NCBI GenBank assembly: GCA_964447755.1
Contig: CAYUTM010000002.1
Span: 8,992-41,448 of the forward strand
Reading direction: 5' to 3'
Length of the DNA stretch: 32,457 nucleotides
From: an uncultured Gammaproteobacteria bacterium
GTDB taxonomy: Bacteria > Patescibacteriota > Patescibacteriia > Magasanikbacterales > GWA2-37-8
Shown: in pieces, positions 4,612 to 27,683 of the stretch
How the letters are laid out: the number at the start of each line of letters is the position of its first letter
How positions within the stretch are numbered: position 1 is the stretch's first letter
Program-made: the position numbers and the translations under genes
The notes under the pieces: generated by a model
What the model saw: the letters and a program-made list of their open reading frames with translations, nothing else
Database searches by the model: none
What the model was told of the DNA's origin: nothing

Positions 4612-5616
4612 ATGAAATTACTTATTTGTGGAGGAGCAGGATTCATGGGTTCGCACTTTATTAAATATGTTTTAGAAAAGTATCCGAAATACGAAGTGGT
4701 TAATTTTGACAGCCTTACTTACGCAGGAAATTTAGACAATTTAAAAGAACTAGAAAAAAACGAACGCTATGTTTTTGTAAAAGGAGATATTGCAAATGAA
4801 AAAGATGTAAAGGATGTCATAGAAAAGTACCACCCAGACATGATTGTCAACTATGCTGCGGAGACCCATGTTGACCGTTCGATACTCGATCCGAAAGCTT
4901 TTTTATTGACTGACGTTTTAGGGAGTTATAATTTGCTTGAAGCAACCAAGAAATTTGGAATTAAAAAAATGGTACAAGTTTCTACAGATGAAGTTTTTGG
5001 AAGCATAGAAACAGGCGCGTTTACCGAAGAATCAAATTTTTTGCCAAATAGCCCCTATGCTGCGGCCAAAGCCGGTGGCGATTTACTTTGTCGGGCATTT
5101 TTTAAAACCTATCAAACTCCTGTGGTGGTCACCCATAGTTGTAATTTTTATGGTACACACCAATATCCCGAAAAATTAATTCCACTTTTTATTACCAATT
5201 TGCTAGAAGGTAAAAAAGTTCCGCTTTACGGAGATGGTCACCAAGTGCGGGAATGGATTCATACGAGCGATCATTGTAGGGCAATAGATATTATTTTGCA
5301 CCAAGGTGTCGTGGGTGAGGTTTATAACATTGGTTCTGGAATAGAAAAAACCAATCTTGAAATTACAAACTTAATTTTGTCAGCATTTGGCCTTGGAGAA
5401 CAAATGATCGAACGTGTAAAAGACCGACCAGGTCATGATGAGCGCTATGCCATCGATCATTCCAAATTAACAAAAGATTTGGGATGGAAACCAGAAAAAG
5501 ATTTTGAAACAGGTTTGAAAGAAACCGTCGAATGGTACAAAGAAAATGAATGGTGGTGGAAGAAATTAAAAAGTGGAGAGTATCTGGAATATTATAAGAA
5601 GCAGTACCAAGTTTAG
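4612..5616 (+). CDS. rfbB: dTDP-glucose 4,6-dehydratase
   Basis: 334 aa. Motifs GGAGFMGS, DSLTYAGNLDNL, STDEVFG and YAAAKAGGD (YxxxK), plus the RPGHDERYAID C-terminal motif typical of RmlB. Confidence 0.9.
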   Translation: MKLLICGGAGFMGSHFIKYVLEKYPKYEVVNFDSLTYAGNLDNLKELEKNERYVFVKGDIANEKDVKDVIEKYHPDMIVNYAAETHVDRSILDPKAFLLTDVLGSYNLLEATKKFGIKKMVQVSTDEVFGSIETGAFTEESNFLPNSPYAAAKAGGDLLCRAFFKTYQTPVVVTHSCNFYGTHQYPEKLIPLFITNLLEGKKVPLYGDGHQVREWIHTSDHCRAIDIILHQGVVGEVYNIGSGIEKTNLEITNLILSAFGLGEQMIERVKDRPGHDERYAIDHSKLTKDLGWKPEKDFETGLKETVEWYKENEWWWKKLKSGEYLEYYKKQYQV

Positions 5617-16981: not shown

Positions 16982-17590
16982 CTACTTTTTCCAATTATCA
17001 CAGCTAAGCTTGTTTCCTAGGAAGCAAGATTGCCTTAAAAGTTCTTGGGGATCGGCAATTTTATTGTTTCTAAACGAAACTTCGCCTAATTTTGCTTCTT
17101 TCATGAGCAAAGCCAATTCATAGCATGATCCACTGATATTGGCACTACATTGATCTTGCAAGAAGTTCTTTATTTCTTGGCATTTACTGTTATCATCAAG
17201 GCATTTCTGGTGATCTTCTAGTTGTCTAATATCCATTTGAAAATAAAAATCCGACGAACAGGATACCTTATATCCATAAGCGCACCCTAAAGTACGCAAG
17301 CTTATGCCACTCTGTTTTATTCCATTGAAGTAGATATCTTTTTTTTCTGCATGTTCGCTTAGTTTAAAGCAGTAGTAGCCAAGTTTTTTCTCAAAGCATT
17401 CTGCTGTATAAGCATATATCATCTCGCCACAATTTTGGGGCTTACGTTCGCAAGAATTGGAAAGTGCGACAAGTTTACCACCATGCTTTTTGTTGTTGTG
17501 TGAACAATATCCAATTAAAGCACAAAATATTAGTGCCAAAATTAGGAAAATTGTGCTATTTTTTCTGCCTGCTGAAAAGATCGTTTTCAT
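16982..17590 (-). CDS. Exported paired-cysteine repeat protein (Sel1/Hcp-like spacing), unknown function
   Basis: 202 aa with an AAGGAG SD 7 nt upstream and an N-terminal hydrophobic segment. It carries five Cys pairs (C-x9-C, three C-x8-C and one C-x7-C): ECFEKKLGYYC, GCAYGYKVSC, KCLDDNSKC, QCSANISGSC, SCFLGNKLSC. Confidence 0.6.
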   Translation of the reverse strand: MKTIFSAGRKNSTIFLILALIFCALIGYCSHNNKKHGGKLVALSNSCERKPQNCGEMIYAYTAECFEKKLGYYCFKLSEHAEKKDIYFNGIKQSGISLRTLGCAYGYKVSCSSDFYFQMDIRQLEDHQKCLDDNSKCQEIKNFLQDQCSANISGSCYELALLMKEAKLGEVSFRNNKIADPQELLRQSCFLGNKLSCDNWKK

Positions 17591-17696
17591 GTACCACTCC
17601 TTGCTTTTTGCAATTAAAAGCCCTAAAAACTATCATAACCTCCGTGTTTTGTAAAGAATTGCCGGGGAATGGTGGTAAAACCGCGCTGAATTAAAT

Positions 17697-17730
17697 AAAA
17701 AAACATCTCGATATAATCAAGATGTTTTTT
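17697..17730 (-). terminator. Intrinsic terminator (A-tract/T-tract flanked, bidirectional in form)
   Basis: Stem ACATCT (17702-17707) pairs with AGATGT (17719-17724). It is flanked by A6 and T7 and lies downstream of the minus-strand gene 17788-18036. Confidence 0.6.
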
Positions 17731-17732
17731 TG

Positions 17733-17770
17733 TCCCCGGAGTTTTCATGTGTGGCACCGGGAGTTCACAT
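17733..17770 (-). repeat. GC-stem hairpin element, copy A (3' UTR position)
   Basis: CCCCGG (17733-17738) pairs with CCGGGG (17756-17761) around a 17-nt loop, followed by AGTTCAC. It is 28/38 identical to copy B at 20052-20089 with one compensatory stem change. Confidence 0.5.
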
Positions 17771-17787
17771 ATTTAAGATTTTTGGGT

Positions 17788-18036
17788 CTATTTGTGCTCG
17801 GTAGTTACTGGGTTTAGTGTGTATTGAATTTGGATAGTTGCGCGGTAAGACCAATTATATCCGCTTTTATAATCTCGTTCTATTTCAATTTCAAGAACTG
17901 TAAAGGTTGGATTTTCTATACCAAATTTTCTAACCATATCTCTGATTTGTTGATTACAGTCCGTTTCATTAATGCCACAACAGGAAGTATAATAAAAATC
18001 AAATGTTTTTAAGTCTGAACCTTTTACGCCGGTCAT
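17788..18036 (-). CDS. Hypothetical small protein
   Basis: 82 aa with a strong SD (AAGGAGAAACAG-ATG). I recognised no family and no signal peptide. Confidence 0.6.
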   Translation of the reverse strand: MTGVKGSDLKTFDFYYTSCCGINETDCNQQIRDMVRKFGIENPTFTVLEIEIERDYKSGYNWSYRATIQIQYTLNPVTTEHK

Positions 18037-18228
18037 CTGTTTCTCCTTTTTTCTGTTTAATATAACAGATGGTTCTATTTTTGATTTTCAAAAGTATAAC
18101 AATCTATTATATTCCAACAAACAGTTATGTGTGGGCTTAAAAGAACTATTTCAGACTAAACAAGTTTATTGTGATTGTCAACATTAAGAAAAATTATTTA
18201 AATAACCTGTAATTTTTTTAGGATACGA

Positions 18229-18252
18229 AGGCACCTGGTGAGACAGGTGCCT
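18229..18252. other. Perfect 9-bp hairpin overlapping the stop codon of the 18251-18619 gene
   Basis: AGGCACCTG-gtgaga-CAGGTGCCT. The T-rich run is on the plus-strand side only, so a terminator role is uncertain. Confidence 0.35.
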
Positions 18253-18619
18253 ATCTTTTCTTTTGATATGAATCTTTGCAGGCTATTTGGAAGCCATGGT
18301 GACAGCCAGTATTCGGCAAGTTTGATGTGTTAAACTCAACCCCTCTACGGCTTTTTATTTTTTGGTACATTTGATCAAAATACTCGCACGCTTTTTCGAT
18401 TTTGCCCCGAAAGCAATTTCGAGCATAAAAATCTACAATCGCCGCACAATTATCATTGAGGAGGCATGTCTTAAAATTTTCATATTCCTTAGTCTGTTCT
18501 TCACTACGAAAAATTCTTTCGCGCTCTTCTTCTTGATAACAATAGCGATCAAGTTTGTACAACACAAGTATGGCTCCGATACCAATCAGCACCCGAAAAA
18601 TTTTCATGAGATTTTTCAT
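18251..18619 (-). CDS. Membrane-anchored/exported paired-cysteine protein, short paralog of the 16982-17590 product
   Basis: The internal ATG at 18619 is preceded by GAGGAGGATACC and by a TTGACA-17-TATATT promoter. N-terminal TM segment (IFRVLIGIGAILVLY). Cys pairs TCLLNDNC, NCFRGKIEKAC and GCHHGFQIAC; compare GCAYGYKVSC in the larger protein. Confidence 0.6.
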   Translation of the reverse strand: MKNLMKIFRVLIGIGAILVLYKLDRYCYQEEERERIFRSEEQTKEYENFKTCLLNDNCAAIVDFYARNCFRGKIEKACEYFDQMYQKIKSRRGVEFNTSNLPNTGCHHGFQIACKDSYQKKR

Positions 18620-18668
18620 GGTATCCTCCTCTTCTGTTTGTGTGCTTGAGCTTCGCAAAGAGTTTGGA

Positions 18669-18697
18669 AATATATAGTATTTTTGAATTTCTGTCAA
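18669..18697 (-). promoter_or_regulatory. Sigma70-like promoter candidate (TTGACA-17-TATATT on the minus strand)
   Basis: The reverse complement of 18692-18697 is TTGACA and that of 18669-18674 is TATATT, with a 17-nt spacer. It lies about 50 nt upstream of the ATG at 18619. Confidence 0.45.
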
Positions 18698-18794
18698 GAT
18701 GGATTGTTGTTTATATATATAGAGTGGAGCTTGAAGAAATTTGATTATGCCTATGTTAATTATTGAGATACATTTTAAAATATATATCGTTGAA

Positions 18795-19127
18795 TCATTC
18801 TTCATCTGTATATTCCAAAAAAAGTCTTTTTTCAAAAGCGCCGCGCTCTTGTTTTTTCTCTTCTTTTCGTTTGATAATTTCCCGAGAAGTTATATTGCTA
18901 TTTTTAGCAATCGTTTCAATTACTTCCAAAATATCTGCTAATTCGTTAAGAATTTCTTCGTTAGATTTTGCTTCCGCGAGTTCATGCGCTTCCTCGGTCA
19001 ATTTTTTATTGAGAGCAATTCTAAATTCCTCAGTGCTTAACACAGAAATTTTTGGTGTAGCGTTGTTGTTTGTGATTATTTCTGGGATTTTATCGCGGAT
19101 TAATTTGTTGTAGATTTTGCGTGGCAT
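18795..19127 (-). CDS. MazG-like all-alpha NTP pyrophosphohydrolase (house-cleaning NTP-PPase family)
   Basis: 110 aa. IYNKLIRDKIPEII ... EEAHEL ... LNELADILEVIETIA ... RGAFEKRLFLEY matches the KLVRDKIPEII/ELADILEV pattern of this family. Confidence 0.7.
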   Translation of the reverse strand: MPRKIYNKLIRDKIPEIITNNNATPKISVLSTEEFRIALNKKLTEEAHELAEAKSNEEILNELADILEVIETIAKNSNITSREIIKRKEEKKQERGAFEKRLFLEYTDEE

Positions 19128-19376
19128 ATTCTAGTTTTTTATTTGAACAACCTTCTCCGTTAGATAGTAGCAGTTTGTCTTATTGGCAGCAATATTTTGA
19201 GTAAAATATTAGATGGTTTTTTGTGAGGTAGGGTAGTTTTTTGAAAATCATGGCTTTTTTGTCATACTCTTGACGAAATGAGTGTCTGGTGACACAATAA
19301 TTGCTCCTATCAACGCCAAGGTAAAACTTGGCACAAAGCCGCTTTGTAGCGGATAGTAGCAAGGGAGAGTGCTCGA

Positions 19377-19943
19377 ATGATGAAACTGATGGCTCTGGCT
19401 TTTGTGGGTTTGCTGATCACTGTTGGATGTGGTCCGGTTGAAAAATCCCTACCTGTGCAACAGGTGGATATGGGGCAGAAACTTCCAAGCTGCCCAGACC
19501 TTAAGGTTGTGGTGGCTGAGACTGGCAATCCGGTGGGGCGTTTGGTTCAACCAGGTGAACCGGGTTTTGTTGCTTTGAAAAGCACATTTCAAGGCTCTGG
19601 TGACCCAAAGTGTGGTGTGAGGGTTACCCGATTGAAGCTTATCGTCGATGGCACTGCCAATAGTAATGGCATGGCTTGGCAGCAAGATTCGGGGGGTGGA
19701 TCATTTGCATCGAGCGGAATTGTCACCAACAACAAAGTCGATGCTCAGCCTGGGCATCTGGCTCATTTGGGCAATGGAATGTTGGACATGTACTTCCACG
19801 TCATCCCAGATCCGAACGGGGTTGAGGGAACGACATTCCAGTTTGAGTTGGTGGAAGTGGAGTACACCAATCTCACAACTGGCGACAGTCACCTGCTCAA
19901 TGTCGCGATTTACGGAGGTAACTTCATTTACTCGCGGCCATAA
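19377..19943 (+). CDS. Lipoprotein, unknown function (GC-rich island gene 1)
   Basis: 188 aa. N-terminus MMKLMALAFVGLLITVG|CG is a lipobox-like signal. GGGAGAG SD 7 nt upstream. It has its own hairpin terminator at 19979-20005. Confidence 0.6.
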   Translation: MMKLMALAFVGLLITVGCGPVEKSLPVQQVDMGQKLPSCPDLKVVVAETGNPVGRLVQPGEPGFVALKSTFQGSGDPKCGVRVTRLKLIVDGTANSNGMAWQQDSGGGSFASSGIVTNNKVDAQPGHLAHLGNGMLDMYFHVIPDPNGVEGTTFQFELVEVEYTNLTTGDSHLLNVAIYGGNFIYSRP

Positions 19944-19978
19944 GAGCATTCTGCTCGGTCCGTTCTGTTCGCATTTAA

Positions 19979-20005
19979 GCGCCTCCCTCGAGGTGCTGTT
20001 TTATT
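19979..20005 (+). terminator. Intrinsic terminator candidate
   Basis: GCGCCTC-cctc-GAGGTGC (one G.T pair) followed by tgttttatt. Confidence 0.45.
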
Positions 20006-20012
20006 ACGGCAT

Positions 20013-20047
20013 AAAAAAGCAGTCGGTGTTAAACTGACTGCTTTTTT
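20013..20047 (-). terminator. Intrinsic terminator (A-tract/T-tract flanked)
   Basis: GCAGTCGG (20019-20026) pairs with CTGACTGC (20034-20041), flanked by A6 and T6. It lies downstream of the minus-strand gene 20119-20883 and of hairpin copy B. Confidence 0.6.
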
Positions 20048-20051
20048 GTTG

Positions 20052-20089
20052 CCCCGAAGTTGTCACGTGTAGCGTCGGGGGATTCACGG
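20052..20089 (-). repeat. GC-stem hairpin element, copy B (3' UTR position)
   Basis: CCCCGA (20052-20057) pairs with TCGGGG (20075-20080) around a 17-nt loop, followed by GATTCAC. The architecture matches copy A. Confidence 0.5.
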
Positions 20090-20118
20090 CACGAATACGT
20101 GCGTTTGGTAGGAGATGG

Positions 20119-20883
20119 CTATGGCGTCTTGCCGAGCAGTTCGCGGATGTTGATAGTCATAGAGCCTTGCTTTCCACCACGCTCACCACAGATGAGCAGC
20201 TCTTTGGCCATCTCGTGACCGTCCGCGTCGTACATCGGCTCCGCCCATGAGGTGCACCTGAAGGACGGCTCGTTGTCGAATGGACCAAACTTGGTCTGGT
20301 CGATAACGCAGTACCATTCGAAGGTGCCCTCATCGCCTGTCTCGTAGTTCTGCTCCCCTGCGGCATAGACGAGCACGCCCGAGTAGATACGGGCGCTCTC
20401 CGGGTTAACACAATCCCAGTGGAGCATGTGACGCCCGCCATGCACGGCCCCCCACACCTGATCATTATCTTCATTGGTCATCCCGATGAAGAGGGGGTGC
20501 CCGCCAGAGATGCCAACGATCTTCCGAACGAATTCTGGGCCACCATACTCGGTCGTGCCGTAGACCACCACGTTGTTGGTGAAGTAGTCAGTCTCGTCAC
20601 CAGGGAGCTTGGCAACATAGAGCGGCTTACCACCAACAATGTTGACATCGCGGACATCGGGGAAGTACCTCCCTGTGAACTCAGCATAATCCACACGGAT
20701 ACCTCTCTTGGTGGGCACGATCTGGACGCCCTGGATGGGTTTTGCCGGAGAATCGTCCTTTCTGACTTTCATGGAATGGTTGTTTTCGTAATGGTAGATC
20801 CAGTAGGAAAAGCCTCCCAGCTCTTTGAAGTTTGGCTCGGGGTTACGAGAAATGGGGTGGGTAGTAGCATCCGTCGTGGTCAT
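20119..20883 (-). CDS. Orphan 254-aa protein, no recognisable family (GC-rich island gene 2)
   Basis: Strong C/G third-position bias in this frame only. GGAGGA SD 6 nt from the ATG and a TTGACA-17-TATGTT promoter about 100 nt upstream. No signal peptide. Confidence 0.7.
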   Translation of the reverse strand: MTTTDATTHPISRNPEPNFKELGGFSYWIYHYENNHSMKVRKDDSPAKPIQGVQIVPTKRGIRVDYAEFTGRYFPDVRDVNIVGGKPLYVAKLPGDETDYFTNNVVVYGTTEYGGPEFVRKIVGISGGHPLFIGMTNEDNDQVWGAVHGGRHMLHWDCVNPESARIYSGVLVYAAGEQNYETGDEGTFEWYCVIDQTKFGPFDNEPSFRCTSWAEPMYDADGHEMAKELLICGERGGKQGSMTINIRELLGKTP

Positions 20884-20890
20884 GTTTATT

Positions 20891-20959
20891 CCTCCAATTG
20901 GTATTACGGGTGGTTCCAGTCTTTTCCAAAGACTTGAATCACCCGTTTACATAAGGAGG
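20891..20959 (-). promoter_or_regulatory. Structured 5' leader with candidate anti-SD/SD pairing
   Basis: Composite hairpin at 20901-20950: GTA/TAC, ACGGGTG/CACCCGT and AGTCTTT/AAAGACT around a tcc loop. It is bracketed by CCTCC (20891-20895, the SD on the minus strand) and GGAGG (20955-20959, the anti-SD on the minus strand). Confidence 0.35.
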
Positions 20960-20982
20960 TATTTCACTTTAAAGAACTAGAC

Positions 20983-21011
20983 AACATATCACAAAATTAC
21001 AGCTTTGTCAA
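20983..21011 (-). promoter_or_regulatory. Sigma70-like promoter candidate (TTGACA-17-TGaTATGTT on the minus strand)
   Basis: The reverse complement of 21006-21011 is TTGACA and that of 20983-20988 is TATGTT, with a 17-nt spacer and a TG extension. Confidence 0.5.
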
Positions 21012-21185
21012 CCTTGATCTGTGGCTAAAATTAGCCAAATAGCTAGGTATGGTGTTTTACCACCATCAGCATCTCCGCCAACCTTAGTCATCAACCACTG
21101 AACAAAAAAGCGAATTTGCTCACGCACTGACGCGAAACCTGGTCTTGAAAGACAAAAAGTCAGTTTTTCCAAGCCAAAAACGGCC

Positions 21186-21214
21186 TTGACAAATCATCAA
21201 ATTTGTACTAAAAT
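21186..21214 (+). promoter_or_regulatory. Sigma70-like promoter candidate (TTGACA-17-TAAAAT)
   Basis: TTGACA at 21186-21191, an exact 17-nt spacer, and TAAAAT at 21209-21214. It lies about 110 nt upstream of the ATG at 21327. Confidence 0.55.
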
Positions 21215-21326
21215 TAGATGTTATTTTAACAATTATGTTCGTTGTAATTAGCGAATTTACTTGTGAAAGTAACGTTATCTGGTAATACATCAATGCCGAT
21301 AAAATCGGTAGAAAGGTTTCCGAAAC

Positions 21327-21764
21327 ATGCGTTCATTCATTGGCGCTCTCATCCTGGCTGTTCTCACCTTCTTCAGCGCCCCTCGCGCCCATGCCGCCAC
21401 TCAGGCCGATGTGGCTCGGGTGGTGATGCTGGTGAAGAAACACCGCGACCGAGGTGGAGACTACCAGATGGTTTTCCACAATGGAGGTAAGAAGTACACC
21501 CTCTGGTATGCTGAGGGTGGTACGGTGGCAAAAGTGCTGTCGATCTGGGTCAAGTCGGCGGGGGGTCAAGAGGTGAATTTTTCCGACCGTGGTACAGACG
21601 GCGTCGTTGACTTCGGCGTCAATGGGAAAAGGACCCAGAAAGTGGTGGAAATGCAACTTTGTGATTCTGAGCGTCAGATCGGGAGTGAGTTCTGCCACTA
21701 CTGGCAGGATCAATATGACCAGGCCATCAGCGCCGCGCTGGCGAGCCTAGCTCGCCAAAAGTAA
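21327..21764 (+). CDS. Secreted small protein, unknown function (GC-rich island gene 3)
   Basis: 145 aa with a signal peptide (MRSFIGALILAVLTFFSAPRAHA|AT). Coding lines are very GC-rich. Confidence 0.65.
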   Translation: MRSFIGALILAVLTFFSAPRAHAATQADVARVVMLVKKHRDRGGDYQMVFHNGGKKYTLWYAEGGTVAKVLSIWVKSAGGQEVNFSDRGTDGVVDFGVNGKRTQKVVEMQLCDSERQIGSEFCHYWQDQYDQAISAALASLARQK

Positions 21765-21865
21765 GCGCGAACCACCGCCTACAAACAAGCGGGTGGGGGC
21801 GCTTGCACTTGGCCTCTACTCGTTATAGTTATAAAATATTGTAGCCATAACGAGGACCATGTGCA

Positions 21866-21900
21866 AAAACAAAAATACCACAATTAATGTGGTATTTTTG
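21866..21900. terminator. Bidirectional intrinsic terminator between island gene 3 and tRNA-Pro
   Basis: ATACCACA (21875-21882) pairs with TGTGGTAT (21888-21895), flanked by A-rich and T-rich runs. Confidence 0.65.
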
Positions 21901-21926
21901 TTTGTAAATCAATATTTTTTGATCCG

Positions 21927-22000
21927 TCGGGCTGACAGGACTTGAACCTGCGATCTCTTGCACCCCATGCAAGCGCGATAGCCAACTTCGCTACAGCCCG
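21927..22000 (-). tRNA. tRNA-Pro (anticodon GGG)
   Basis: The 74-nt reverse complement folds by hand as a cloverleaf: acceptor CGGGCTG/CAGCCCG, D stem GCGA/TCGC, anticodon stem CTTGC/GCAAG with loop AT-GGG-GT (U33, G37), T stem GCAGG/CCTGT with loop TTCAAGT, and discriminator A. No CCA is encoded. Confidence 0.9.
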
Positions 22001-22269
22001 ATGTTAATATTTTCATCTATAATTTTGAAAAAACCATTTTTAATATCTCTTTCCAATGCACCATGACTTCGTTTATATTTATGCTCAATTACTCGTGCTT
22101 CTCCCAAAGACTCTGTCTCGCGGTAACCAATCAGCTTGAGCGGTCTTCGATATTTTGTTGATTCAACTTTTCCATTTTCATGTAATTTAAAACGGGCAAA
22201 TACATCCGGGGTTGAGCCGATGTAGTTTTTAAGATCCTTTAAACTTTTGAGCAAATAAACGTATGCCAT
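21991..22269 (-). CDS. Small GIY-YIG (URI domain) nuclease
   Basis: 92 aa from the ATG at 22269. YVYLLKS-x11-YIGST, R..LHENG and E in IEHKYK match the GIY-YIG signature. The last three codons and the TAG stop lie inside the first 10 nt of tRNA-Pro. Confidence 0.75.
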   Translation of the reverse strand: MAYVYLLKSLKDLKNYIGSTPDVFARFKLHENGKVESTKYRRPLKLIGYRETESLGEARVIEHKYKRSHGALERDIKNGFFKIIDENINIGL

Positions 22270-22276
22270 ATTTTTT

Positions 22277-22354
22277 TTGCACCCCGCCGGGCAGAGCCCT
22301 CTGGGCGGCGCCCTCTTAGGCAGAGCCCTCTGGGCGGCGCCCGCCGGGCAGAGC
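22277..22354. repeat. Tandem GC-rich palindromic repeats (2.5 copies)
   Basis: The 24-nt core ggcagagccctctgggcggcgccc occurs at 22290-22313 and 22319-22342, with a partial copy at 22343-22354. CAGAG/CTCTG and GGCGG/CCGCC segments can form hairpins. Confidence 0.8.
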
Positions 22355-22427
22355 AGCCAGTATGAAGGCGTCCTATAGAGGATGAATTCGTTGAGCTCAT
22401 TTAGACTATAATAACCAAAGAATCTTA

Positions 22428-22498
22428 TTGCACCCCTCCGGGCAGAGCCCTCTGGGCGGCGCCCATGCAAGCGCGATAGCCAACTTCGCTACAGCCCG
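22428..22498 (-). pseudogene. Disrupted tRNA-Pro copy: 5' half plus anticodon stem, with a GC-rich repeat inserted in the anticodon
   Basis: In tRNA sense it reads CGGGCTGTAGCGAAGTTGGCTATCGCGCTTGCATGGG, then the insert CGCCGCCCAGAGGGCTCTGCCCGGA, then GGGGTGCAA. The insert is flanked by a CCC/GGG microduplication. The sequence downstream resembles a T-arm only weakly. Confidence 0.6.
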
Positions 22499-22555
22499 GT
22501 ATGTCTTTCTATAGAACATGAAGAATACTACGTATCACATTAAAATAGGCAAAAT

Positions 22556-22810
22556 TTATTTTTTTAAAACCTGATTTTTATTTTGTGTCTTAATGATAAA
22601 CAAAATAGTTACGTAAATAATTAATGCTGCCAAGATTAGTAGTGTTATAGGGAAACCCCAGCAACCCAAAAGGTTTGTTTGACAACCATTCATATTTTTT
22701 ATATCTGCTTCATATCCGGCTCTGAAGTTTTCGCCCGCAGTTAATATTAACATAATCAATAGAACTGAAATGATAATAGAATGTTTTTTTGTATTTTTAG
22801 TCAAATTCAT
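22556..22810 (-). CDS. Small two-helix membrane protein, unknown function
   Basis: 84 aa with two clear hydrophobic helices and only a weak SD. Confidence 0.4.
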   Translation of the reverse strand: MNLTKNTKKHSIIISVLLIMLILTAGENFRAGYEADIKNMNGCQTNLLGCWGFPITLLILAALIIYVTILFIIKTQNKNQVLKK

Positions 22811-22884
22811 AGATTCCGTTTTAAAAACTTTATTTTCCCAGCAAGTCTATCATATTAAAACCGGCTTTTCAAGCCAAAAATGAT

Positions 22885-24393
22885 ATGATAGAGTATCTTA
22901 AATTAAGAGTTATTAATTTTTGCGTTGTGTCTTCCTCCTTATCTACCATCCTCAAAAAAATCACCACACTCTCCAAAAAAGAGAAAACTCCTGTGTACAT
23001 CGTTGGTGGGTACGTGCGGGATTTTTTATTACAGCGTTTGCAGAAAAAAGATCTGGATTTTGTCGTGCTCGGCAGCGGGCTGGAATTTGCCAAAAAATTG
23101 GATGAAACCTTAAAGCAAGCGGGGAGTTTAATAGAGTTCCCGGACTTTGATACTGCGCGTTATTTAATTGGGGAAGGCGAGGATAGGGTAGAGCTAGAAT
23201 TTGCCGGAGCGCGCACCGAGTCATATTCGCCGGATTCAAGAAAGCCAAAAGTAGAACAAACTACCTTGGACGAAGATTTGAAGCGTCGTGATTTTACCGT
23301 CAATGCCATGGCTTTGCCAATAGATGTGTTGGAAAAAATGTTGTCTGGTAAATCATCGATAGAAACATTCCAAAAACATCTCATCGACCCATTTGATGGG
23401 CAAAAAGATTTGGCTGAAAAGATTTTACGAACTCCACTTGACCCTGACGTTACTTTTAAAGAAGACCCGCTGCGCATGTTTCGTGCTATTCGTTTTGCGG
23501 CACAGCTAAATTTTTCTATTGAATTAAAAACCTTGGAATCAATTTACCAAAATCGTGAGCGAATAAAAATTGTGTCCATGGAGCGCGTGCAAGAAGAATT
23601 ACTAAAACTATTTTCATGCGCTCAACCATCTATTGGCTTGGTACTTTTATTCCAAACCCAACTGATGGACATAATCTTGCCCGAAATTTCTGCTCTTGAT
23701 GGAGTAGAGGATGTGTACGGCCATTCGCACAAAAACAATTTAACTCATACGTTCAAAGTTGTAGACAACATTGCGGAGCGCTCGAATAACGTGTGGTTGC
23801 GTTTGGCTGGTTTTTTTCATGACATTGGCAAACCGCCTACCAAAAAATTTCTACCCAAAATCGGCTGGACCTTCCATGCCCATGAATTTGTGGGAAGAAA
23901 AATGATGCGCGTGATTGGTAAACGATTGCGTTTGGCAAATGATAAAACTGATTACTTGTCAAAACTCATTCGTTGGCACATGCAACCTATTAGCTTAATG
24001 GATAAAGGAATTACCGATTCTGCGGTGCGCCGATTGATTGTAAATGTGGGTGAGGAGATTGAAGATTTGTTAGTTTTGGGTCGCAGCGACATTACCACCG
24101 GCAACCCATTTAAAAAAGAAAATCGTTTAAAGAATTATGATTGGCTTGAAACACGAGTAGCGGAAGTAATTGAAAAAGATAAGCTCCGCGCATTCCAATC
24201 ACCGGTGCGGGGCGAGGAAATTATGGCAGTTTGTGGTCTCAAACCAGGGCCAACGGTAGGAAAAATTAAAAAAGCCATTGAGGAGGCAATTTTGAACGGT
24301 GTGGTGCCCAATGATCACGACCCGGCTTTTGAATATTTTGCCTCAATAAAAGACTCTTTTTTAAAAAACATTGCAGCGTGGGAAAAGGCTTAA
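22885..24393 (+). CDS. cca: CCA-adding tRNA nucleotidyltransferase with HD domain
   Basis: 502 aa. VYIVGGYVRDFLL, KDLDFVV, RRDFTVNA and the HD motif FFHDIGKP. This fits the neighbouring tRNA lacking an encoded CCA. Confidence 0.8.
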   Translation: MIEYLKLRVINFCVVSSSLSTILKKITTLSKKEKTPVYIVGGYVRDFLLQRLQKKDLDFVVLGSGLEFAKKLDETLKQAGSLIEFPDFDTARYLIGEGEDRVELEFAGARTESYSPDSRKPKVEQTTLDEDLKRRDFTVNAMALPIDVLEKMLSGKSSIETFQKHLIDPFDGQKDLAEKILRTPLDPDVTFKEDPLRMFRAIRFAAQLNFSIELKTLESIYQNRERIKIVSMERVQEELLKLFSCAQPSIGLVLLFQTQLMDIILPEISALDGVEDVYGHSHKNNLTHTFKVVDNIAERSNNVWLRLAGFFHDIGKPPTKKFLPKIGWTFHAHEFVGRKMMRVIGKRLRLANDKTDYLSKLIRWHMQPISLMDKGITDSAVRRLIVNVGEEIEDLLVLGRSDITTGNPFKKENRLKNYDWLETRVAEVIEKDKLRAFQSPVRGEEIMAVCGLKPGPTVGKIKKAIEEAILNGVVPNDHDPAFEYFASIKDSFLKNIAAWEKA

Positions 24394-27175: not shown

Positions 27176-27224
27176 TTTTCTTAAAATAAAGAAGCCGACG
27201 ATTCTTTGAACAGTTGACTGTTCA

Positions 27225-27600
27225 TTAAATCGCCGGCCAGATGGCCTTCGTGATGGGGTTAGCCGTGCTCGTCCGCCAGGTCCTTGTAGAAAGCCTTGGC
27301 TTCCGGCAGGTTCGTGTGCCTGAACACATTCCCCATGAAACCGTCCATTTCTTCACGGATGAACTGGACCCTCCCGCCCTGCAGCGCCTTTCGGGCGGTG
27401 TCCTGCGCGGCCTGTGGGAGCTCAGCGATCGCGGCTTGGATCTTGCCACTCCTGAGGAGGTCGAGATACGTAGCCATCTCCTGCTCCAGAGCCTCAATGG
27501 TTCCGGGTCTGAAGAGCGGGTTGACGGTCGGTAGTTTGACTGTATTCATTGAATTGCTCCTTGATACGTCCTCACCGTGGAGGAACAAAATACTATAAGC
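27225..27600. other. Very GC-rich insert inside the efflux operon
   Basis: A hand count gives 44/60 G+C at 27361-27420. AT-rich flanks lie on both sides. Confidence 0.75.
27259..27549 (-). CDS. Orphan 96-aa helical protein encoded antisense to the efflux operon
   Basis: The ATG at 27549 is preceded by AAGGAG (8-nt spacing). There is strong G/C third-position bias in this frame. A TTAACA-17-TATAGT promoter lies upstream. I recognised no family. Confidence 0.6.
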   Translation of the reverse strand: MNTVKLPTVNPLFRPGTIEALEQEMATYLDLLRSGKIQAAIAELPQAAQDTARKALQGGRVQFIREEMDGFMGNVFRHTNLPEAKAFYKDLADEHG

Positions 27601-27619
27601 TACCCTACCACTCTTGTTA
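27591..27619 (-). promoter_or_regulatory. Sigma70-like promoter candidate (TTAACA-17-TATAGT on the minus strand)
   Basis: The reverse complement of 27614-27619 is TTAACA and that of 27591-27596 is TATAGT, with a 17-nt spacer. Confidence 0.45.
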
Positions 27620-27683
27620 ATAGTAAAAAGCCAATTTTCGGCTAAAATTAAAGCAAATAAACAGAAATATTGTTTATAGAGGT

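Follow-up and report, generated by a model that had tools for sequence, protein, structure and literature searches.

A GC-rich three-gene island in the tRNA-Pro(GGG) slot of a Magasanikbacteria lineage, probably acquired horizontally and carrying no integrase

Results

Setting and composition of the island

The window analysed here (the whole stretch of 32,457 nucleotides (nt) of contig CAYUTM010000002.1, assembly GCA_964447755.1) carries an island of three open reading frames (ORFs) of 188, 254 and 145 amino acids (aa), about 2.6 kb in extent and located just beyond the 3′ end of tRNA-Pro(GGG); since this tRNA gene lies on the minus strand, its 3′ end faces the island. A first-pass annotation had reported three ORFs of these sizes together with a sharp jump in guanine plus cytosine content (GC) and a strong G/C bias at third codon positions. 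The ORFs are all present as stated, and windowed GC, third-position GC (GC3) and codon usage bear out both the jump and the bias. Indeed, GC in 500-nt windows is 0.34 at 18.5–19.0 kb, rises to 0.51, 0.56 and 0.49 over 19.5–21.0 kb, passes through 0.44 at 21.0–21.5 kb (an AT-rich spacer) and 0.51 at 21.5–22.0 kb, and is 0.30 at 22.5–23.0 kb; the bulk of the window lies at 0.30–0.44 and the island flanks at 0.30–0.34. The 188-, 254- and 145-aa genes have GC of 0.51, 0.56 and 0.56 and GC3 of 0.52, 0.70 and 0.65, respectively, as compared to a GC3 of 0.24–0.41 for the remaining 27 ORFs of the window, and their codon-usage log-likelihoods relative to the window (−1.31 to −1.49) are the three worst of 30, the others ranging from −0.88 to −1.18. 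The coding DNA of the island is foreign by composition. We also considered a native cluster of highly expressed genes and rejected it, as the third-position bias, the absence of the genes from relatives and a separate second insertion at 27.3 kb (both below) speak against it. The rest of the window encodes sugar-nucleotide and glycosyltransferase functions, FtsW/RodA, a P-type Ca-ATPase, an HlyD/MacB-type ABC exporter and DnaG, a gene content consistent with a Magasanikbacteria genome, and an Rfam scan of 18.5–23 kb returned nothing besides tRNA-Pro(GGG).

Independent contigs and selection

The island was also recovered in independent metagenome contigs. Two contigs of 4.2 kb from the Joint Genome Institute (JGI), L001 and L002, are colinear with window positions 21881–17707 and 21822–17649 at 85% identity, and extend about 1.4–1.6 kb into the low-GC host genes left of the island. 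In total, the island is reproduced in L001, L002, L003, L090 and L091, and its low-GC left flank also in L001, L002 and L090; agreement on the arrangement also comes from shorter contigs of a third JGI sample and of a Logan run, and the identity per 100 columns spans a similar range within the island and outside it. Whether the three genes co-occur elsewhere had been raised by the first-pass annotation: they do so solely in one closely related lineage, at about 15% DNA difference, and in none of 80 further relatives (below).

Compared with the L001 orthologues, the ratio of nonsynonymous to synonymous substitution (dN/dS) is 0.24 for the 188-aa, 0.28 for the 254-aa and 0.44 for the 145-aa gene, with dS values of 0.16, 0.50 and 0.60, respectively, and of 0.14–0.62 for the flanking host genes. 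The dS of the island genes thus falls in the range of the host genes beside them; the island predates the lineage split, and it is under purifying selection.

A further contig, L004 (positions 1–1125; JGI 3300045345), retains the 3′ part of the 145-aa gene (~98 codons) together with the hairpin that follows it; at its other end, a C-terminal fragment of a seryl-tRNA synthetase is fused to the 145-aa gene at a common FQNKDG stretch. Because of this fusion, L004 may be a misassembly, or else it may reflect a real rearrangement (a rearranged second copy).

The tRNA-Pro slot in relatives

The host was identified through the flanking CCA-adding enzyme, which is 57–72% identical to that of 80 genomes; these relatives are mostly labelled Candidatus Magasanikbacteria, Magasanikiibacteriota or Patescibacteria, with many records under other names, and the host is accordingly an AT-rich, ultra-small groundwater member of Candidatus Magasanikbacteria. 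None of the 80 loci encodes any of the three island proteins. In these relatives, tRNA-Pro(GGG) and tRNA-Pro(CGG) usually form a tandem pair about 1.3 kb ahead of the CCA gene, in variable surroundings, and a PilT-like (T2SSE) ATPase gene often separates tRNA-Pro(GGG) from the CCA gene (L005 8924–9964, L039 8817–9890, L061 8880–9983). The window has no tRNA-Pro(CGG), and no PilT-type gene was seen in it; positions 22000–22885 instead hold a GIY-YIG cassette (described below) and an 84-aa membrane ORF.

The first-pass annotation had called for the ATPase-to-tRNA-Pro interval to be compared among related genomes. In the relatives, the space around the tRNA-Pro genes is a variable slot with other cargo in it: two lipoprotein genes with GC3 of 0.78 and 0.97 between both tRNA-Pro genes in L006, an IS1595 transposase in L039, a BglII-type restriction-modification pair with a GC-rich orphan gene in L061, and another GC-rich orphan common to L029 and L050. 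Among the GC-rich segments of the relatives, 17 of 36 lie less than 1 kb from a tRNA gene, a zone that makes up 12% of the sequence; 11 of 30 is the cleaner count, because six segments overlap tRNA genes, which are themselves GC-rich. This diverse cargo ranges from DUF3455, an SPFH protein and an acetyl-CoA hydrolase to orphans; it showed no homology to the island proteins, and most of it is mutually unrelated too. The tRNA-Pro slot is thus a recurrent landing site in Magasanikbacteria.

To the left of the island, positions 16982–19127 contain four genes of host composition, which encode a 202-aa Cys-rich lipoprotein-like product and products of 82, 123 and 110 aa, the last of them MazG/PRA-PH-like. 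All four are absent from the 80 relatives, and the entire 17.0–22.8 kb stretch is therefore lineage-specific. Note that the 82-aa gene product is 40% identical to its L001 counterpart, with a dN/dS of 0.79.

Search for mobility functions

At first reading, the island was placed at a tRNA 3′ end and was stated to have neither an integrase nor an attachment-site (att) repeat, and our searches agree. Pfam scans of the listed ORFs of the window gave no recombinase or transposase domain, and neither a repeat search nor BLAST of tRNA-Pro against the window detected a copy of the tRNA 3′ end at the far border (19.1–19.4 kb) or elsewhere in it. Of the tRNA, only the 5′ half is repeated, as a perfect copy of 37 nt (21964–22000 and 22462–22498); this copy is found beyond the tRNA as seen from the island, as part of the GIY-YIG cassette. 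For the three island proteins, PHROGs gave no significant match, scans of IMG/VR were negative and no PADLOC defence model was matched.

The island proteins

In agreement with the first-pass annotation, which could assign the three proteins to no family, none of them has a match in Pfam, NCBIfam, PHROGs, PADLOC or PDB sequences. Two exported products and one intracellular product had also been announced, a division that the predicted signals uphold. Indeed, the 188-aa product displays a lipobox (LLITVG↓C) which, judged by reading the sequence, conforms to the bacterial lipoprotein pattern, the 145-aa product has a predicted AHA↓A cleavage site, and the 254-aa product is devoid of a signal peptide. 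The mature lipoprotein looks beta-rich, and its sole relative, P0003 from the sister lineage, is 92% identical and carries LLITAG↓C. Relatives of the 145-aa protein were likewise found in the sister lineage only, namely P0005, at 67% identity, and P0006, a fusion product.

For the 254-aa protein, a word-indexed search of 5.8 billion clusters returned only the protein itself and its orthologue, and an exhaustive profile search of 1.84 billion representatives returned 13 relatives. Eight of these are 135–264 aa long (E = 2.5e-46 to 2.6e-10), and four (P0015–P0018) are 400–450 aa long with many GKPLY...VVWG...YD units (HMMER E of 5e-6 to 9e-4). Aligned by hhalign, the 254-aa family and P0015–P0018 agree with a probability of 97.6% (E = 2.9e-12, 164 columns); at the level of sequence profiles, the 254-aa product is homologous to these GKPLY/VVWG repeat proteins, with which it can be aligned but of whose repeats it carries just 4–5 degenerate ones. 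The unit of P0015–P0018 (GKPLY-x-A...VVWG-x2-E-x3-YD) resembles, to the eye, what we take to be WG/KWG-type beta-hairpin repeats; WG/KWG and other Pfam models matched neither the 254-aa protein (E ≤ 0.1) nor its relatives (E ≤ 1). As far as these searches reach, the protein belongs to a very small undescribed family. When its profile was scanned against a metagenome collection, which evidently lacks the L001-bearing samples, no matches were obtained.

With ten sequences, AlphaFold2 modelled the 254-aa protein as all-beta, with about 20 strands in hairpins (predicted local distance difference test (pLDDT) 85.6, predicted template modelling (TM) score 0.83); with two sequences, the pLDDT was 41. 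Foldseek against the PDB found nothing significant for this model (best E = 0.04, TM 0.38), the weak top matches being mostly propellers such as sortilin, TolB and AIP1 (E ≥ 0.04, TM ≤ 0.38), and a search of the BFVD viral folds returned nothing under E = 0.06.

The only long contig with a homologue of the 254-aa gene, L086, has 51% GC and a small-genome gene set that includes RecA, FtsK, ComEC and DnaA. Its homologue, P0012, stands between genes for a YchF-type GTPase and trigger factor, without the 188-aa and 145-aa genes, and a neighbouring 188-aa product is unrelated to the island lipoprotein.

Expression signals

The divergent promoters, the GGAGGA Shine-Dalgarno sequence and the A-tract and T-tract terminators described in the first pass could all be located in the sequence (Table 1). 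TTGACA-17-TATGTT is the predicted promoter of the 254-aa gene, whose ATG is preceded by GGAGGA, and TTGACA-17-TAAAAT that of the 145-aa gene; both −35 boxes are kept in L001, to which the divergent region shows 72–95% identity per 100 columns. In the island region, 12 promoter-like sites were observed, as compared to 4.6 ± 2.6 in shuffled sequences. The hairpin between the convergent genes is likely a bidirectional terminator for the 188-aa and 254-aa genes, and the one next to the tRNA is likely a terminator common to the 145-aa gene and the tRNA. The left border spacer, which runs from the start of the MazG-like host gene to the lipoprotein gene, is colinear in L001, L002 and L090.

The DNA between the genes had been described as AT-rich. 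This holds for two of the three spacers (GC 0.38 and 0.37), but the convergent spacer has a GC of 0.51, and the inter-gene DNA is therefore AT-rich only in part. The accompanying idea, that foreign cargo was "re-housed in native expression cassettes", is unneeded: homologues of the 254-aa gene on three unrelated contigs (flanks of about 47–62% GC) have GC3 of 0.69–0.86 and are preceded by spacers of 38–43% GC, so that such a spacer travels with these genes or is normal for them. In addition, a long conserved hairpin (GGGTGATTCAAGTCTTTGGAAAAGACTGGAACCACCC) lies in the 5′ leader of the 254-aa gene, and a CCTCC located upstream may pair with the GGAGG Shine-Dalgarno sequence. This leader is nearly invariant in L001 and L003 and may therefore act as a translational control element; it has no Rfam match.

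Table 1. Coordinates of the island, its borders and other features mentioned in the text (window numbering)
Feature	Position	Strand	Remarks
MazG-like host gene	18795-19127	minus	110 aa
Left border spacer	19128-19376		249 nt, GC 0.38; weak promoter-like sites and Shine-Dalgarno sequence AAGGGAGAG
188-aa predicted lipoprotein	19377-19943	plus	Signal peptide MMKLMALAFVGLLITVG↓C, lipobox
Convergent spacer	19944-20118		
15-bp hairpin	20013-20047		A-run and T-run flanks; between convergent 188-aa and 254-aa genes
254-aa protein	20119-20883	minus	No signal peptide; about 4–5 degenerate GKPLY...VV(Y/W)G beta-hairpin repeats
Divergent control region	20884-21326		443 nt, GC 0.37; two near-consensus promoters, GGAGGA
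5′ leader of 254-aa gene	20896-20960	minus	
TTGACA-17-TATGTT	21011-20983	minus	
TTGACA-17-TAAAAT	21186-21214	plus	
145-aa predicted secreted protein	21327-21764	plus	Signal peptide ending AHA↓A; two cysteines in mature part
16-bp hairpin, perfect	21867-21903		Between 145-aa gene and tRNA; kept in L004
tRNA-Pro(GGG)	21926-22000	minus	Right-hand landmark of the island; Rfam tRNA, 61.9 bits
92-aa GIY-YIG gene	21991-22269	minus	Pfam E = 1.7e-8; stop overlaps tRNA-Pro(GGG) 5′ end
GC-rich element, three copies	22283-22310, 22312-22339, 22434-22461		Upstream of GIY-YIG gene
Copy of tRNA 5′ half, 37 nt, perfect	22462-22498		Upstream of GIY-YIG gene
84-aa membrane ORF	22556-22810		
CCA-adding enzyme gene	22885-24393		
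Gap between ABC ATPase and MacB permease genes	27176-27683		508 nt
96-aa orphan ORF	27259-27549	minus	GC 0.59, GC3 0.76

The GIY-YIG cassette and its 30-nt element

The same tRNA gene is adjoined, at its 5′ end, by a cassette made of a GIY-YIG gene, three copies of a GC-rich element and the copy of the tRNA 5′ half; beyond the element, the 3′ strand of the anticodon stem resumes. L061 shows the same layout, and its upstream tRNA fragment, which has a compensatory change in the anticodon stem, resembles that of the window and not its own resident tRNA; this locus also carries an element copy at 5261–5288. Exact copies of the 20-nt core of the element were recovered from metagenome contigs at least 120 times (loci L092–L211), and from viral contigs not at all. 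Alignment of 108 distinct contexts (at least 108 are known) delimits a sharply bounded 30-nt unit, GGCGCCGCCCAGAGGGCTCTGCCCGGCGGG, which folds no better than shuffled sequence. Moreover, 60 of 110 copies fall within long ORFs, 45 of these 60 in one phase, where they encode GAAQRALPGG or PAGQSPLGGA; homologous proteins free of the element show exact 9-residue gaps at the insertion site, and the net insertion is therefore 27 nt, in frame. Two proteins that read as release-factor-like each carry the element at a different position. Further copies of the element sit within tRNA D-loops and an anticodon loop, or at the 5′ ends of tRNAs.

Among the 120 element-bearing loci listed, 26 contain a GIY-YIG homologue (39–60% identical), including L105, L108, L111, L123, L128, L134, L138, L144, L154, L155, L164, L168, L169, L174, L184, L189, L194, L200, L209 and L210. 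The element stands 9–27 nt ahead of the GIY-YIG ATG in 14 of these 26 loci and just past the stop codon in nine, and in L134 the gene is flanked by it on either side. The tRNA gene directly after the GIY-YIG gene is Pro-GGG in 16 loci, Ala in three, Lys in two, and Leu and Pro-TGG in one each. From these arrangements, the cassette looks like a system of a predicted nuclease and a mini-element that settles at tRNA genes, of which we found no description in the literature searched. We also considered that such cassettes generally travel with GC-rich DNA and rejected this, since only L061 is a clear case among 22 loci profiled; the cassette and the island were therefore treated as independent tenants of the slot.

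A second GC-rich insertion

Elsewhere in the window, a 96-aa orphan ORF with no Pfam match, predicted to be helical and provided with its own Shine-Dalgarno sequence and terminator, sets the ABC ATPase gene apart from that of the MacB permease by 508 nt (Table 1), as compared to less than 50 nt in most of 52 relatives.

Discussion

Our results suggest that the island is probably a horizontally acquired accessory patch without an integrase, which occupies a hypervariable tRNA-Pro(GGG) slot and became fixed in one Magasanikbacteria lineage. It has the properties of a compositional islet, namely a distinct composition and codon usage together with a patchy distribution in a variable region. As for the marks of an integrase-type tRNA island, the location at a tRNA 3′ end and the atypical composition are present, and the recombinase and att sites are absent. 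The genes would come from one or more donors of roughly 50–60% GC, most plausibly other Patescibacteria, which suits the 47–62% GC of the contigs that carry homologues of the 254-aa gene, and would have entered by DNA uptake followed by illegitimate or homology-assisted recombination rather than by site-specific integration. Their presence precedes the split from the sister lineage (dS of about 0.2–0.6), and purifying selection retains them. Within the genome, they form three independent single-gene transcription units, each with a sigma-70-like promoter and with shared hairpin terminators; the two exported proteins may act at the envelope of a presumably episymbiotic cell, and the repeat protein may work by binding something and not as an enzyme. 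Such gene acquisition is common in Patescibacteria, where hundreds of genomic islands and transferred genes, exchanged mostly among Patescibacteria, were found in 125 genomes (PMC12455944) and where up to 13% of genome length was attributed to transfer (PMC12455944, mSystems 2025), and the island itself is fairly ordinary in this respect.

Several observations weigh against this interpretation. The donor lineage was not identified, as the 254-aa protein has only 13 distant relatives, all on metagenome contigs. The left-flank genes being missing in the relatives, there is no empty site for comparison. L001 and L002 end ahead of the tRNA, so that the right junction has no independent copy, and L004, which does reach it, departs about 7 nt into the tRNA 3′ end and then enters another GC-rich segment. 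Moreover, GC3 is equal in both lineages (0.70 and 0.70), with no drift toward the host composition, which is mildly unexpected for old foreign DNA. Finally, the functions suggested for the island proteins draw on predicted signal peptides, one structure model and the size of a family.

The abrupt change of composition, and the fact that L001 and L002 end close to the right junction, could also be expected if the assembly or binning had attached sequence from a GC-rich organism to a contig of Magasanikbacteria. This we find hardly credible: L001, L002 and L090, from three separate samples, cross the left junction into low-GC genes, L001 and L002 at the same 85% identity as in the island, and L004 shares the AT-rich spacers as well as the hairpin next to the tRNA. 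The suspicion of a chimera voiced in the first-pass annotation is thus removed for the left junction and the island body by independent contigs, but the right junction lacks such a contig. The position directly 3′ of a tRNA gene would equally suit a decayed site-specific element (a tRNA-targeting island or a prophage) that has lost its integrase and att sites, and L004 retains the right end of the island with the last ~7–10 nt of the tRNA, like a short att remnant. However, L004, at 1.1 kb, is possibly misassembled, and the window offers no recombinase, no tRNA 3′-end repeat and no match to a phage family or a viral contig, which makes such a decayed element improbable.

The first-pass annotation had read the trio as one functional envelope or partner-interaction module, acquired as a whole and working together. 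Gene order and orientation are indeed kept in two lineages about 15% apart in DNA, all three genes are under purifying selection, two of them have export signals, and the GC-rich cargo of the relatives is also often a lipoprotein. Against this, the genes form three separate transcription units in divergent and convergent orientation, and their GC3 (0.52 versus 0.65–0.70) and dS (0.16 versus 0.50–0.60) differ, which suggests different histories; in addition, the 254-aa homologue P0012 stands without the other two, and the exported proteins have no relatives beyond the sister lineage. The module is consequently weakly supported, and we regard it as rather unlikely. The neighbouring cassette suggests yet another origin, in which the island was captured or co-converted during repair of double-strand breaks made at tRNA-Pro(GGG) by the resident GIY-YIG nuclease. 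The GIY-YIG gene adjoins the same tRNA, its relatives immediately precede a tRNA gene, most often Pro(GGG), in 23 of the 26 metagenome loci with a homologue, and L061 combines the same cassette with an adjoining GC-rich orphan gene. Nevertheless, L061 is the one locus of the 22 profiled with a clear GC-rich segment (four others have small or marginal GC rises), most relatives with GC-rich cargo in the slot have no GIY-YIG gene, and both the activity and the target of the nuclease are predictions; capture by break repair is thus distinctly improbable. We attach the same slight likelihood to the broader proposal that the slot is kept recombinogenic by the nuclease and the 30-nt element, as a previously undescribed mobile system; if true, bacteria of the candidate phyla radiation (CPR) would have here a way of acquiring islands that needs no integrase. 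Acquisition without an integrase, into a variable slot, remains the explanation we favour.

CPR genomes are tiny and thought to be partner-dependent, and genes retained against streamlining are therefore good candidates for surface or interaction functions; the island provides three such candidates under selection. Among them, the 254-aa protein, whose model is confident yet without a neighbour in the PDB or the viral library, makes a reasonable structural target. The island leaves the current understanding unchanged, and the adjacent GIY-YIG cassette with its 30-nt element, which is more unusual than the island, might alter it.

Comparison with known systems

Classical tRNA-linked islands (pathogenicity islands, P4-type elements) are integrase-mediated, lie downstream of a tRNA 3′ end and bring accessory cargo of foreign GC. 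The island has the tRNA 3′-end site, the foreign GC and the accessory cargo in common with them; in contrast, it lacks both a recombinase of the tyrosine or serine type and a directly repeated tRNA 3′ end, and measures only 2.6 kb.

The cassette finds its comparators in the Rickettsia palindromic elements (RPEs), the REP/RAYT systems and the free-standing GIY-YIG homing endonucleases (T4 Seg). Like the RPEs, the 30-nt element is short, GC-rich and nearly palindromic, and has inserted in frame into many protein genes; as in REP/RAYT, there is a tight linkage to a single small nuclease gene; and the predicted nuclease gene stands at tRNA genes, as Seg-type genes do at theirs. It differs from all of them in that the element is only 30 nt long (net 27) and in that its partner is a GIY-YIG protein of about 90 aa (a predicted nuclease) and not an HUH transposase.

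The closest parallel to the island itself is given by the islands and transferred genes of Patescibacteria (PMC12455944), since both are compositionally atypical, patchy accessory DNA in streamlined CPR genomes. The three gene families of the island are undescribed in that study, and the site, a tRNA-Pro slot common to many Magasanikbacteria, and the retention of the genes under selection in two lineages are documented here.

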